Of a stretch of 4,050 bases of DNA, positions 1 to 4,050 are shown in pieces. The stretch is from a virus. Lineage: Duplodnaviria; Heunggongvirae; Uroviricota; Caudoviricetes. Made by a program: the position numbers and the translations under genes. The stretch is from IMG/VR virus record IMGVR_UViG_2579778919_000005. One strand, written 5' to 3'. The notes under the pieces are model-generated. The model was given only the letters and a program-made list of their open reading frames with translations. It searched no databases and was not told the origin of the DNA. Every line of letters begins with the position of its first letter. The first letter of the stretch is position 1.

Positions 1-192
1 TCAGGAGCATTTCTGGTTAACGCCACCGTTAAGAATCCACCCTTCAACAGCTTCACGAAGGTATGATTTGGGGTGGGTTCTGACTGGCTTCGGAAATCCG
101 TACCGTTTGGTATAGTTCCAGATTGTCTGACGTGATGAAACACCGAGCTTGTTCATCACTTCTTTCTCAGGAATCAGGCTGGTATCGGTCAT
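1..192 (-). CDS. AlpA-family helix-turn-helix DNA-binding protein (prophage transcriptional regulator / excisionase-like), 63 aa
   Basis: Complete ORF on the minus strand: ATG at 192..190, TGA at 3..1. GGAGA Shine-Dalgarno (plus coords 199..203) sits 6 nt upstream of the ATG. The translated segment EKEVMNKLGVSSRQTIWNYTKRYGFPKPVRTHPKSYLREAVEGWI fits the AlpA/Vis-type HTH pattern recalled from memory (hydrophobic-x-x-E-V, G-x-S-R-S/T-T-I-Y, FP-K-P, trailing W). Size of 63 aa is typical for the family. Confidence 0.8.
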   Translation of the reverse strand: MTDTSLIPEKEVMNKLGVSSRQTIWNYTKRYGFPKPVRTHPKSYLREAVEGWILNGGVNQKCS

Positions 193-269
193 CTTAATTC
201 TCCAGGCAAAAAGAAACCGCCATATAGCGGCTCTATCAGATATGTACAGGCCTCATCGAGTGTGGGGCG

Positions 270-614
270 TTAGTCCTTGCGTAGCTCGCTGATTCTTCTG
301 TAAGTCTCTGGCGCTTTGTTTCCGTGTATCTTCATTTCAGACTTCAACAGAGCAACGAGGGAATCCCATTCGTTGAGGATGCCTTTGAATGTCGGAACGC
401 GCTTTGCAACCTTGTCGAATGAATCTCTGATTTCTGGAATCTGCTCAACAAGTGCAACACATCGCCGGAAGTCTGCTGCGTCATGGGGAGCGCCGAAGTG
501 ATGACCATAGATATTCTTTTTCAGTCCACATGCGATTGAGGCAAGAGTTGCGCTACTGATGCCGACATCGCCAGTTGATTGCCATTTCAAAACCTTCATA
601 GCCAAATCTGACAT
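270..614 (-). CDS. hypothetical protein, 114 aa (123 aa if the GTG at 641 is used); no recognisable family
   Basis: ORF track lists a minus-strand ORF 270..641 whose first codon is GTG. An in-frame ATG at 614..612 is preceded by GGAGA (plus coords 621..625) with 6-nt spacing, so I prefer that start. Stop is TAA at 272..270. The protein has mixed, non-repetitive composition and no predicted TM segment. It is in tandem with, and 77 bp upstream of, the AlpA-like gene, so probably co-transcribed. Function unknown; I do not recognise the sequence. Confidence 0.6.
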   Translation of the reverse strand: MSDLAMKVLKWQSTGDVGISSATLASIACGLKKNIYGHHFGAPHDAADFRRCVALVEQIPEIRDSFDKVAKRVPTFKGILNEWDSLVALLKSEMKIHGNKAPETYRRISELRKD

Positions 615-663
615 TTCTTGTCTCCATAAAACAAAACTCACCGTAGCGAGTTCAGATAAAAGA

Positions 664-685
664 AATCCCCGCGAGTGCGAGGATT
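664..685. promoter_or_regulatory. 22-bp imperfect palindrome AATCC-c-CGC-gagt-GCG-a-GGATT; candidate operator or bidirectional hairpin in the divergent intergenic region
   Basis: Pairs 664..668 with 681..685 and 670..672 with 677..679, with one mismatch (669/680). It lies between the divergently oriented minus-strand cassette (start 614) and the plus-strand gene run. On the minus strand it is followed by TTCTTTTATC, so it could also act as a terminator for leftward transcripts entering from the right. Confidence 0.3.
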
Positions 686-693
686 GTTATTCA

Positions 694-1089
694 TTGCCGA
701 TATTCACCTTTATCGCGAACACCTTTACAGGAGGACTTGGTTCGACAGCCACAAGCAATCAACTGGCTACGATTGCTCCGACTCTCGGTCAGTCGTGGTT
801 ATCAAACCAGATGAGCAATTACAACAATCTGGCAAACGTTGGGCTTGGTGCGCTGCAAGGTCAGGCAAACGCTGGGCAGACATACGCCAACAACATGAGC
901 AGCATTGCACAGCAAAGCGCAGCACTTGCCGCTGCTAATGCCAATAAACCATCAAGTCTTCAGACAGCAATTAGCGGCGGCACGTCTGGTGCGATTGCCG
1001 GTGCAGGTCTTGCCAGCCTTCTTGAAACATCAACACCGTGGGGTGCTGGCATTGGCGCTGGTATCGGATTGCTTGACTCGTTGTTTTAA
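694..1089 (+). CDS. small Gly/Ala-rich putative membrane-active virion (ejection-type) protein; 5' end uncertain, possibly a truncated remnant
   Basis: Frame-1 ORF ending in TAA at 1087..1089. The track start (ATG 559) gives a Cys-rich, non-protein-like N-terminus and overlaps the divergent minus-strand gene, so I reject it. Remaining in-frame starts are TTG 694 (GAGGA at 679..683, 10-nt spacing) or ATG 811 (no clear SD). The C-terminal part (TSGAIAGAGLASLLETSTPWGAGIGAGIGLLDSLF) is a glycine-zipper hydrophobic segment. Composition matches the next two genes. Confidence 0.45.
   Translation: MPIFTFIANTFTGGLGSTATSNQLATIAPTLGQSWLSNQMSNYNNLANVGLGALQGQANAGQTYANNMSSIAQQSAALAAANANKPSSLQTAISGGTSGAIAGAGLASLLETSTPWGAGIGAGIGLLDSLF
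705..727 (+). repeat. direct repeat CACCTTTA (705..712 and 720..727), with a flanking TATTCA duplication (688..693 and 701..706)
   Basis: Exact 8-bp direct repeat 15 bp apart, immediately upstream of GGAGGA (730..735), inside the uncertain 5' region of ORF1. Could be tandem regulator-binding sites or coincidence. Confidence 0.25.
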
Positions 1090-1098
1090 GGGGTAATC

Positions 1099-1812
1099 AT
1101 GGCTACTTGGCAAGGAACAAACGGCGGATTGTTGGCTGGTATCGGTGGCGTCAACTCAAACGCTCCTAACGTAAATGACATCGGCAATACGCTTCAGCTT
1201 ATCAGGCAGAACAATGATATTGAGCGTTCAGGCGCTAACAATGTTGGGCTGACTGTTTTGCAAGGTCTTTCTGGTATTGCGGGTGTTTTTAAGCAGGAAA
1301 AGCAGGCTCAGCGGCAGAAAGAATTTCAGCGGGCGTACGCTAATGCTTATGCGTCTGGTGATCGCGGTGCTTTGCGTCAGTTGGCTACTCAATATCCAGA
1401 CCAGATTGAATCTGTTCGTAAAGGAATGGGATTCATTGATGAAGACCAGCGCAATTCTATCGGCACCTTAGCGGCTGGCGCACGCCTTGCATCATCATCT
1501 CCAGAAGCAATGCAATCATGGCTGCAAAACAACGCCAAGGAACTGACTCGCGTCGGTGTTGACCCTAATAACGTTGCTCAGATGTATCAGCAGAATCCTT
1601 CAGGATTTGGTGAGTTTGTTGATCACCTTGGGATGGCTGCTCTTGGTCCGATTGATTACTTCAATGTTCAGGACAAGATGGCTGGTCGTGAGATTGACCG
1701 AGGCAGACTGGCAGAGACAATCCGCAGCAATCAGGCTGGTGAAGCACTAACAGCGCGTGGTCAGGACATCCAGATATCGGAAAGATTAGAAATCAGCTTG
1801 AAAGCAAGTTGA
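1099..1812 (+). CDS. putative internal virion / DNA-ejection protein, 237 aa (functional analogue of the P22 gp7/gp20/gp16 class)
   Basis: ATG at 1099 preceded by AGGGG (1090..1093) with 5-nt spacing; stop TGA at 1810..1812. The N-terminus has a glycine-rich hydrophobic stretch (GGLLAGIGGV) followed by a Q/N/A-rich, probably helical, low-complexity sequence. It lies in a co-oriented run of genes directly upstream of a P22-type tailspike gene, the position ejection-protein genes occupy in P22-like phages. The functional call rests on synteny and composition, not recognised sequence identity. Confidence 0.7.
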   Translation: MATWQGTNGGLLAGIGGVNSNAPNVNDIGNTLQLIRQNNDIERSGANNVGLTVLQGLSGIAGVFKQEKQAQRQKEFQRAYANAYASGDRGALRQLATQYPDQIESVRKGMGFIDEDQRNSIGTLAAGARLASSSPEAMQSWLQNNAKELTRVGVDPNNVAQMYQQNPSGFGEFVDHLGMAALGPIDYFNVQDKMAGREIDRGRLAETIRSNQAGEALTARGQDIQISERLEISLKAS

Positions 1813-1814
1813 GC

Positions 1815-1840
1815 ACTGTTAAAAAACAGTTTGATTATCA
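1815..1840 (+). terminator. weak hairpin (ACTGTT-AAAA-AACAGT) followed by TTGATTATCA; candidate attenuator between ORF2 and ORF3
   Basis: 6-bp stem with only 2 G:C pairs and a 4-nt loop, starting 3 nt after the ORF2 stop, followed by a U-rich stretch. If real, it would only partially terminate. Confidence 0.2.
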
Positions 1841-1912
1841 GGAGCCGGTGCAGAATATGCCAGGGCAACAATCTACTACTGGCAGTAACTTTTCTTCACT
1901 ATGGGGTGATTA

Positions 1913-3175
1913 ATGGCTAAAGCATGGAAAGATGTTATCAGATTTGCAGAGCGTGAAGGAGTTCCTCTGCACACCACAGACCTGTTACAACCAACTTCCT
2001 GCGTCGGAAAAATGGCGCAGACTACAGCAGAAAATATCCCTCTGGCTGGCACAAGCGGAATGAGAGCAACGCAACAGGAAGCGAGAAGCCAGTTGGTGCA
2101 GAGATTTGCTGATAAATTCGGTGAGTATGATCCAGCGGTTGTTATTGACAGCCTTAAAGCGAAAACATCAGGAATTCGTCGTGCCGCCGGTAATCGACTG
2201 GAGCAGGTTCAGAATGCTATGGCTGGAGTAAACATTCAGCCTGCGCGAGCAATTCAGCAGATTGATACAGAAATATCTAACCTGCAGAAGCTTGGTAAGG
2301 TTGCTGATAACGAGACTATTTCAAAACTTCAGTCATATCGTGATGAGCTTGTTCGCAATGCTGGTCCTGATGGTCCGGTAAATCTGGATTTGAAGCAATT
2401 AAGCGATCTGCGCAGCCAGTTCAGAATGGACGTGAAGGGTGAGCGACCAGTGTTACCAAACCGTTCCGATGCTGCCATTCAGCGCGTTTACAAGGCAATG
2501 ACCGACGATATCAATGGTGCCATTGGTCAGAATCTTGGCAACGATACTCTCCGTAAATATCAGCAGGCCAATGCCGTCTACGCTGACGAAGCGGCGAAAC
2601 TAAAGAATACCAGACTGAAGAATGTTCTCATGAAAGGCGACCTGACGCCGGAAGTTGTCAACAACATGCTATTCAGCAAGAACAAATCGGAAATTAAGAC
2701 GCTGTATAACTCAGTTGGTCGTGTTGGCCGGGCGCAAATGCGCAATGGCATCATTGGAAAGGCGATGGAGAAATCTGGCGGATCCCCAGCCCAGTTCCTT
2801 CGACAGCTTAACATCCTGCAAAACCATACTGGCATCACATTTAAAGGTCAGGATGCTGCTTATCTGAAAGGATTGAAAAACTACCTGCAATCCACGCAGC
2901 AGGCTGCAAAAGCGGCAGTAACAACACCCACAGGTCAGCAAACCATCCCGTTCATTATCGGGTATGGGACTGCAATGAACCCGGCGACAACTGGCGCAGC
3001 AGTAAGCTACGGCCTTCTTGCTCGCGCCTATGAGAGTAAGCCATTCAGAAATGCAATGCTACGAATGGCAAATACCCCACGCGGATCAACAGCGTTTGAG
3101 AAAGCCATGCAGCAGGCACAAAAGGCCATTAACTCCCTGACTCAGGGTGCTAAGTCTGATGCGTTGTCAGAATAG
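1913..3175 (+). CDS. putative internal virion / DNA-ejection protein, 420 aa
   Basis: ATG at 1913 preceded by GGGG (1903..1906) with 6-nt spacing; stop TAG at 3173..3175. Long, uninterrupted ORF; the competing ORFs on either strand are short and internal. The protein is A/Q/K-rich and probably helical, with a hydrophobic Gly-rich segment near the C-terminus (IPFIIGYGTAMNPATTGAAVSYGLLA). It is the last gene before the tailspike. The functional call is by position and composition only. Confidence 0.75.
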   Translation: MAKAWKDVIRFAEREGVPLHTTDLLQPTSCVGKMAQTTAENIPLAGTSGMRATQQEARSQLVQRFADKFGEYDPAVVIDSLKAKTSGIRRAAGNRLEQVQNAMAGVNIQPARAIQQIDTEISNLQKLGKVADNETISKLQSYRDELVRNAGPDGPVNLDLKQLSDLRSQFRMDVKGERPVLPNRSDAAIQRVYKAMTDDINGAIGQNLGNDTLRKYQQANAVYADEAAKLKNTRLKNVLMKGDLTPEVVNNMLFSKNKSEIKTLYNSVGRVGRAQMRNGIIGKAMEKSGGSPAQFLRQLNILQNHTGITFKGQDAAYLKGLKNYLQSTQQAAKAAVTTPTGQQTIPFIIGYGTAMNPATTGAAVSYGLLARAYESKPFRNAMLRMANTPRGSTAFEKAMQQAQKAINSLTQGAKSDALSE

Positions 3176-3339: not shown

Positions 3340-4050
3340 ATGACAGACATTACAGCCAATGTTGTAATTGGGATGCCTTCGCAACTCTTCACTATGGCGC
3401 GTTCTTTTAAAGCCGTAGCCAATGGCAAAATTTATATCGGTAAAATTGACACTGACCCGGTAAATACTGAAAACCAGATTCCGGTTTATGTAGAGAACGA
3501 AGACGGCTCTCACGTTTCTGTTTCTCAACCAATCATCATTAACGCTGCTGGATATCCGGTATATAACGGGCAGATTGCCAAATTCGTAACTGTGCAAGGC
3601 CATTCTATGGCTGTATATGATGCGTATGGCACGCAGCAGTTCTATTTCCCTAATGTGCTGAAGTATGACCCTGATCAATTTCAGGAAAGATTGCTATCTG
3701 AAAATGGGCCATTATTAGTTGATGATTCAGTTGTTCGTGTAAAACAACCCCTCTCTATGGCAATCGAGAGAGCACAGCACGATAAAAATGCAGATTTTGT
3801 GAGCGCGAAAGACTTTGGGTTTAAAGGTGATGGCACGAATGATGATGCTGCGGTGCTCAAACTTAAAGATTACGTTAACACAAGACCTAAATATTCTCCA
3901 CCAGTATCCGTGTACTTTCCAGATGGAAATTATCTTATTAGCGAGTCATTGAATTTAATTAGACCTGTTACTTTATACTCTTTTAAAGGAGCAACAATAA
4001 ACTATACTGGAACTGACGCTGCAGTTAAGTGTGGAGATCCAACTGACGAA
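3340..4050 (+). CDS. tailspike protein, N-terminal 237 codons (P22 gp9-type head-binding domain plus the start of a beta-helix receptor-binding domain); 3' end lies beyond the window
   Basis: ATG at 3340 with GGAG (3328..3331) 8 nt upstream; the frame stays open to the last base of the window. Residues 1..113 (MTDITANVV...[21 protein letters not shown]...[14 protein letters not shown]...QPIIINAAG...[13 protein letters not shown]...NVLKYDPDQ) match, at most positions, the conserved head-binding domain of P22/Sf6/HK620-type tailspikes as I recall it. After YDPDQ the sequence diverges and contains [17 protein letters not shown] (nt 3808..3858), the motif typical of the start of pectate-lyase-like right-handed beta-helix depolymerases. 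Not in the supplied ORF track because it has no stop inside the window. Confidence 0.9.

Follow-up and report, generated by a model that had tools for sequence, protein, structure and literature searches.

What function can be assigned to a small protein that is encoded in a variable prophage region, beside a gene for a helix-turn-helix (HTH) protein, and that no described domain family covers? The question is raised by ORF114, a gene in a 4,050-nucleotide stretch of tailed-virus DNA (Caudoviricetes; IMG/VR record IMGVR_UViG_2579778919_000005), which is referred to here in its full length as the window. A first-pass annotation had proposed an accessory gene, or moron, served by a dedicated HTH regulator. 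The sequence of ORF114 is already known, as ORF114 of phage 434, gp32 of HK022 and phrog_1229. The coordinates of the features discussed below are collected in Table 1.

Table 1. Features around ORF114 in the window, in order of position.
Feature	Positions	Strand	Remarks
Convergent tyrosine integrase gene, last 20 nt	1..20	plus	Overlaps the excisionase-like gene
63-aa MerR/AlpA-type winged-helix protein, probable excisionase of the sbcB-type integrase module	1..192	minus	
Terminator-like hairpin, GAGCCGC..GCGGUUUC + U5	214..233	minus	Between ORF114 and the excisionase-like gene
ORF114 coding sequence	270..614	minus	114 aa plus stop; phrog_1229 family; orthologue of 434 ORF114 and HK022 gp32
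Shine-Dalgarno GGAGA	621..625	minus	6 nt 5' of the ORF114 ATG; read from the sequence
Second terminator-like hairpin with U-run	634..653	minus	U-run leads straight into the ORF114 Shine-Dalgarno
Hairpin homologous to 'tL4' of the 434 and HK022 records	664..685	minus	Alignment and fold
3' remnant of a gp34-like exo-xis gene, which in HK022 lies before the cassette	687..726	minus	Last 13 codons and stop
C-terminal fragment of the P22 gp7 / Sf6 gp11 ejection protein	727..1089	plus	Profile positions 108-230 of 230

A catalogued gene in a degraded prophage

The reading frame described earlier stands with its limits, its 114 residues and its translation. ORF114 opens with an ATG at 614-612 and closes with a TAA at 272-270, spanning 114 codons of the minus strand, and it is indeed co-oriented with the HTH gene (192-1), a relation that had been given without naming the strand. 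The ribosome-binding site that had been called strong is the GGAGA before this ATG, and the same hairpin, Shine-Dalgarno and start-codon context is also kept in E. coli PSJ-16, Stx2a_F349, HK022 and 434. Some gene callers choose an in-frame GTG at 641, which yields a 123-aa version; the start was placed at 614 because homologs from other genera all open with MSDLAMKV. The protein contains two cysteines and four histidines that are not clustered, and it has neither a transmembrane segment nor a signal peptide. These properties agree with the first-pass description of a protein without a metal-binding Cys/His cluster or a membrane-spanning segment, that is, a small soluble protein of a variable prophage region, here the lambdoid exo-xis region.

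The first-pass annotation could not assign the protein to any family. Neither Pfam, NCBIfam nor PADLOC matches ORF114, and no known function is attached to it, but it is a full-length member of phrog_1229 (E 7.9e-52, residues 1-114 on profile positions 1-113 of 116). Its amino-acid identity to 434 ORF114, to the HK022 counterpart gp32 (HK022_32) and to the proteins of mEp043, mEp213 and the Stx phages 1717 and 2851 is 96-99%. The 434 gene carries the name 'ORF114' in GenBank record M60848 (protein AAA67902) and has been catalogued since about 1990. Together with the hypothetical proteins of mEp043, mEp213, mEp234 and Stx phages 1717 and 2851, 434 ORF114 and HK022 gp32 share with the window gene their length, their Shine-Dalgarno and ATG context and a slot just 5' of xis. 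Phages 434 and HK022 differ from the window in having an extra ORF55 cassette between tL4 and ORF114, which the window lacks, and lambda-type xis and int genes, whereas the window has an AlpA/MerR-type xis-like gene and a convergent integrase, the remainder of the operon being deleted. The left 726 bases of the window match many Stx-converting and mEp phages, and the part from ~238 to 726 additionally matches HK022 and 434.

This gene is common in E. coli. Full-length ORF114 DNA with 90-99% identity is held by 915 of 5,426 complete genomes (~17%), Stx1, Stx2a and Stx2c prophages included, and in every one of these copies the annotation reads 'hypothetical protein'; exactly the same protein is recorded in 190 blocks of public assemblies. 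The ratio dN/dS, calculated by the Nei-Gojobori method between ORF114 and its counterparts in 434, HK022, Stx2a_F349, E. coli PSJ-16 and Salmonella phage g341c, lies between 0.08 and 0.19. Judged by these comparisons, ORF114 is under purifying selection, and it is a real, selectively maintained phage gene and not a chance reading frame. Searches by accession, PHROG identifier, name and peptide found no paper on ORF114, nor do the supplementary files of two accessory-gene screens list it.

The right-hand neighbours of ORF114 in the window have another origin. Position 726/727 is a deletion junction that brings the gene beside virion genes, and from 727 on the window is Sf6/P22-like: gp7 is represented by its last 123 residues and gp20 by no more than its N-terminal half, and an N-terminally shortened gp16 and the head-binding domain of a tailspike follow. 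Because gp7, gp20 and gp16 are truncated and an exo-xis gene survives as a remnant, the window is read as a prophage remnant, with one large deletion fusing the distal part of the pL operon to mid-gene 7. The position beside a tailspike gene, a neighbourhood that had been named as one to look for, is an artefact of this junction.

Several details of the virion-gene side can be recorded. The gp20 homologue (1099-1812) ends after about 225 of ~435-509 profile positions, a 34-aa ORF follows at 1809-1913, and the gp16 homologue (1913-3175) is without its first ~225 residues; the ejection module (1099-3175) is internally deleted and misses ~1.2 kb relative to Sf6. The tailspike gene starts at 3340 with a conserved P22/Sf6 head-binding domain, and its reading frame extends beyond the end of the window (4050). 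Among the phage and E. coli records listed as best matches, the alignment to the window stops at about 3675-3693, which suggests that the receptor-binding part is another allele. The homology of the ORF114 module breaks off at ~726-731 alike in the window, PSJ-16 (L003 8727-8729), HK022 and Stx2c phages, with different continuations: past the common breakpoint lies antisense gp7 from about codon 108 in the window, but a C-terminal fragment of an ejection protein in PSJ-16. This raises the question of whether the left breakpoint shared by the two remnants is a mosaic boundary or a deletion hot spot.

Operon position and the excisionase-like neighbour

Where an intact prophage encodes the identical protein, the gene order is N..CIII-Kil-RecT/Erf-Ea22-DUF551-small ORF-ORF114-xis-int. 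Phage 434 has ORF55 and tL4 on the 5' side of ORF114 and t'I, xis and int on the 3' side, P22-like Salmonella phages place the gene in the same last slot with an annotated terminator before it, and the window retains the order ORF114-xis-int. As the last pL gene before xis and int, ORF114 counts among the genes of the lambdoid exo-xis region, a segment reported to be early-transcribed, non-essential and largely uncharacterised (PMC8614690). Between ea22 and xis of lambda, only ea8.5 and orf55 are named in that review (PMC8614690). Like ORF114, the lambda exo-xis proteins (Ea8.5, Orf55, Orf60a, Orf61, Orf63, Orf73 and Ea22) are small, uncharacterised and encoded in the segment from the recombination genes to xis. 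The region is reported to influence lysogenisation and induction (PMC8614690, PMC3824215 and PMC6213356).

Outside the lambdoid setting, Mu-like phages carry ORF114 homologs in their early region among Kil-, DUF3164-, GemA- and Mor-family genes. Other phages carry them in blocks of small genes with no integrase nearby or beside RecE-like nucleases, and in an Arthrobacter phage the homolog lies 3' of the repressor and integrase genes on the same strand.

Directly before ORF114, its strand carries two strong hairpins with U-runs, 685-664 and 653-634, which fold jointly at -24 kcal/mol (z -4.8). The hairpin 233-214 on the far side takes the position of t'I in 434; it is not homologous to it and lies outside the homologous stretch. 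No sigma-70-like promoter was found on the ORF114 strand in window positions 1-1100 by a crude consensus scan, which could miss a weak or non-sigma-70 promoter, and an Rfam scan of the same interval returned no credible RNA family. Comparison of window positions 615-660 with 434 (2053-2290) and HK022 (5380-5640) shows ORF55 to be a ~190-bp cassette between two copies of the arrangement hairpin, U-run, GGAGA, N6 and ATG. It is missing from the window, Stx2a_F349 and PSJ-16. Elsewhere among E. coli prophages its slot is taken by an unrelated gene for a 59-aa zinc-ribbon protein, whose similarity to Lar (restriction alleviation) is sub-threshold.

The HTH neighbour itself resembles an excisionase. 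AlpA is a sub-threshold match to the 63-aa protein, its similarity to MerR/CarH-type proteins is weak, and its best PHROG is phrog_66, 'excisionase and transcriptional regulator'. The 20-nt overlap of its gene with the end of the convergent integrase is seen in both Stx2a_F349 and E. coli PSJ-16, as well as in a full prophage at sbcB. From this position and family, we infer that the protein is the excisionase of that integrase module. The xis-like and integrase genes are convergent and overlapping in the window, as against the co-directional xis-int of lambda, and the module adjoins sbcB in E. coli PSJ-16 and in a metagenome contig (L024).

ORF114 is found with several such partners. In addition to the AlpA-type 63-aa protein, these comprise the lambda-type Xis (lambda Exc, PF07825) in 434, HK022 and contig L027, a 66-aa HTH protein (L025/L026) and a P22-type xis in a read-through chimera (P0011), and homologs in Mu-like and other phages have no xis nearby at all. 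Since ORF114 occurs with three unrelated xis types or with none, the 63-aa HTH protein is not a dedicated partner. The proposed dedicated small HTH regulator thus turns out to be of excisionase type, to overlap the integrase gene and to be swapped for other xis types while ORF114 stays; and a neighbourhood that always includes AlpA, the other arrangement to look for, gives way to several xis types or none. With anti-CRISPR/Aca-type operons, in which a small HTH autoregulator comes after a small effector, the locus shares the succession of a small uncharacterised gene and a co-oriented small HTH gene. It differs from them in that the HTH neighbour of ORF114 belongs to the excisionase type, has a gene overlapping that of the integrase, and does not accompany ORF114 consistently.

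Phage morons such as HK97 gp15 and lambda bor and lom are extra cassettes with a promoter and a terminator of their own, and they are expressed from the prophage. ORF114 resembles them as a hairpin-flanked cassette, present or absent between genes that are adjacent in related phages: 434 has orf55-ORF114-xis where the review names only ea8.5 and orf55 for lambda, and the hairpin 233-214 follows the gene. To this extent the accessory reading survives. Unlike morons, however, ORF114 has no detected promoter and is embedded in the N- or put-antiterminated early pL operon, behind terminators of the tL4 type.

Whether ORF114 is a moron expressed from the prophage under AlpA-like HTH control, and acting in superinfection exclusion, defence or lysogenic conversion, can be weighed on this basis, and we regard this as quite improbable. 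The gene is co-oriented with the HTH gene and lies 77 nt upstream of it, is cassette-like with terminator-like hairpins on both sides, and has an Arthrobacter phage homolog in a repressor/integrase-side block. It is also intact in two differently deleted prophage remnants, the window and PSJ-16, which could hint at a benefit to the host and at expression in the prophage state. Yet the ORF114 strand offers no promoter-like site, the HTH neighbour is an integrase-adjacent excisionase type exchanged for lambda-type, P22-type and other xis genes, and homologs occupy early lytic operons of Mu-like phages and integrase-free blocks of small genes elsewhere. Most exclusion proteins, moreover, have the signal peptide or transmembrane segment that ORF114 lacks, and PADLOC matches neither ORF114 nor, beyond noise, 70 remote relatives.

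Conserved residues and predicted fold

The remote members of the family, 70 proteins that are ~30-40% identical, define a sharp signature. S20, P43, D45, D48, R51, C52 and W83 are invariant among them, W11, G18, S21, L55 and P60 are nearly so, and the family core reads PxDPxDFxRC. All signature residues are present in the window protein: W11, G18-x-S-S, P43-x-D-P-x-D-F-x-R-C52, P60-E and W83-D. The segment GHHFGAPHD, which had been singled out as the most distinctive motif, does not hold this rank, as H38 and H39 are variable and H44 is only partly conserved in the 70 members. Charge is not conserved either: the pI of the family ranges from 4.5 to 9.8 with a median of 5.9, and R51 is the sole invariant basic residue.

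An AlphaFold model of ORF114 was obtained with a pLDDT of 93.8 and a pTM of 0.87, and it predicts seven helices at residues 3-12, 19-28, 46-58, 60-72, 74-81, 83-97 and 102-113. With high confidence in the model, ORF114 is predicted to be a compact seven-helix cytoplasmic protein. The starts of the helices coincide with conserved residues: P46, P60, P74 and P102 occupy first turns, D45-P-x-D48 forms a capping box, and S20 and S21 stand at helix 2. These residues are therefore read as determinants of the fold.

The structure prediction, which had been recommended together with a similarity search, thus gives a confident model. No relative of ORF114 was found in the PDB by sequence or by profile, no known enzyme or sponge fold is similar to it, and the lambda exo-xis proteins with solved structures (Ea8.5, Ea22 and Orf63) resemble it neither in sequence nor in fold. 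One resemblance outside the PDB is to a giant-virus protein of Sylvanvirus sp. (BFVD A0A3G5AI15; TM 0.70, 20% identity). Pfam, NCBIfam and PADLOC gave only noise with the 70 remote relatives, including one PADLOC noise match.

Two alternatives concern the biochemical nature of the protein. ORF114 might be a nucleic-acid-binding regulator or a recombination accessory whose N-terminal G-I-S-S-x-T-[LM]-A is a degenerate HTH, and which modulates the lysis-lysogeny decision, excision or Red/Erf-type recombination, as other exo-xis region genes do. On inspection of the sequence, the stretch 18-30 looks like the turn plus recognition helix of an XRE-type HTH motif, adjacency to xis and int is constant in lambdoid and P22-like phages, RecE-like nucleases adjoin homologs in two unrelated phages, and the reported influence of exo-xis genes on lysogenisation and induction (PMC3824215) would suit such a role. 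The profiles and the model nevertheless speak against it. No HTH family of Pfam matches ORF114 at E<=1 or the 70 relatives at E<=0.01, the model has a loop before G18 in place of a first HTH helix, the putative recognition helix carries Ala and Ser and not basic residues, the family pI is mostly acidic to neutral, and many homologs are located where int and xis are absent. We consider a regulator of this kind very unlikely.

ORF114 could also be a small enzyme or a binder of nucleotides or signals, with S20/S21, D45, D48, R51 and C52 forming a pocket together with E61, R63, D84, E93 and Y105. Such a protein would hydrolyse, modify or sequester a nucleotide-type compound early, either as a sponge or hydrolase directed against signalling defences or as a nucleic-acid modification factor. 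The number of invariant polar residues is unusually large for members only about 30% identical, and the very broad host range points to a target that is universal, for instance a small molecule. In several unrelated elements, homologs have orphan DNA methyltransferases or RecE-like nucleases beside them, and in one case (P0173) the member is either fused to a CCA-adding enzyme with an HD domain or directly next to it. Against this stand the lack of a conserved His and of a metal-binding cluster, the location of most invariant residues where helix caps and helix-initial prolines are expected, the placement of C52 in the middle of a helix and not at a helix N-terminus, and the lack of resemblance to any known enzyme or sponge fold. 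Guilt by association with the CCA-adding enzyme was set aside, since no relatives of the fusion could be detected and it may result from faulty gene calling. An enzyme or small-molecule binder is, on this balance, an unlikely identity for ORF114.

Breadth of the family and the favoured role

ORF114 belongs to a large and widely distributed family. An exhaustive profile search yielded 2,897 representative clusters at E<=1e-3 and 683 at E<=1e-10, where a word-indexed search had returned only enterobacterial relatives plus many recombinant chimeras. Members were found across Proteobacteria and Actinobacteria phages, among them those of Vibrio, Salmonella, Yersinia, Mannheimia, Haemophilus (Mu-like), Arthrobacter and Clavibacter, and a ~26%-identical homolog is kept on about 109 Pseudomonas megaplasmids of ~400 kb. 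On P. aeruginosa p60503-DIM (L018), the homolog at 7995-8351 is divergent from an HTH regulator and has two orphan DNA methyltransferases after it; an SOS-response-associated peptidase lies near, and the neighbourhood is of a non-phage, establishment type.

Composite proteins are frequent in this family and have been a source of misleading labels. Among the unusual members P0071, P0252, P0107 and P0173, one has two tandem ORF114 domains, and P0252 and P0107 carry an N-terminal zinc ribbon. A Rosetta-stone link through this ribbon was discarded, since the zinc-ribbon gene beside ORF114 in E. coli prophages has nothing but a CPxCG knuckle in common with the N-termini of P0252 and P0107. Ten fused members scanned against PHROG matched the same unknown families only. 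In many chimeras (P0015, P0017, P0035, P0041, P0055, P0067 and P0026/P0038), an ORF114 part is joined to dATP/dGTP pyrophosphohydrolase, Erf, Ea22, Kil or unrelated C-termini. An identity as PF04447 (dATP/dGTP pyrophosphohydrolase) was rejected because that domain lies in the non-ORF114 half of P0015, P0055 and P0067, and the ERF, Ea22 and Kil labels on some matches likewise come from the other half of recombinant chimeras. Some Stx2 phages (Stx2 phage 86 and PA28) retain the first ~56-68 codons of ORF114 only. Judged by these junctions, recombination in the exo-xis region seems frequently to join sequences within the body of this gene.

The explanation that we favour, and to which we give about an even chance, is that ORF114 is an antitermination-dependent, delayed-early cytoplasmic protein that binds a conserved host or phage factor and is silent in this remnant. 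In intact lambdoid and P22-like prophages, ORF114 stands last among the accessory genes of the leftward early (pL) operon, right before xis, and its product would be made only when pL transcription, antiterminated by N or, in HK022, by put, passes tL4. Since expression would need antitermination through tL4, ORF114 should be delayed-early, appearing with Xis at infection or induction and not in a quiescent lysogen. The product would then bind a conserved macromolecule of the host or the phage, in the service of host takeover or counter-defence. In the window itself, pL, N and the immunity region are gone, and this copy of ORF114 is therefore probably silent cargo.

A binding role is favoured over that of an enzyme or a DNA-binding regulator because the conserved residues look like fold determinants and charge is not conserved. 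This preference, drawn from negative evidence and from reasoning on residue patterns in the model, is held with modest confidence. Several observations run counter to the favoured explanation. Twelve polar residues (S20, S21, T23, D45, D48, R51, C52, E61, R63, D84, E93 and Y105) are invariant or almost invariant, and these could equally mark a catalytic or ligand pocket. The survival of intact copies in the two differently deleted remnants could hint at expression from the prophage state. In addition, the Arthrobacter phage homolog stands on the repressor/integrase strand, 3' of both genes.

More specifically, and only tentatively, the ORF114 family may constitute an unrecognised, structurally novel class of early counter-defence or host-takeover proteins, for which one possibility is an anti-restriction or establishment factor. 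This possibility is considered because of recurrent neighbours, which include orphan DNA methyltransferases, the Lar-like zinc-ribbon gene and genes of Gam, Abc2 and RecE type. The methyltransferases adjoin homologs on the megaplasmids and in two phages, and together with the Lar-like neighbours they provide weak circumstantial support for an anti-restriction or establishment role.

The copy in the window is nothing new in itself, being an ordinary instance of a catalogued, uncharacterised early gene in a degraded prophage. The family to which it belongs is among the larger wholly uncharacterised families of phage early genes, combining a confident fold that has no solved relative with a sharp sequence signature, and as a whole it is a reasonable target for experiment. 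If ORF114 were a neutral passenger of the exo-xis region, the finding would be ordinary. If, on the other hand, a role in counter-defence or host takeover is true, it would bear on the induction biology of Stx prophages and on the catalogue of anti-defence genes.
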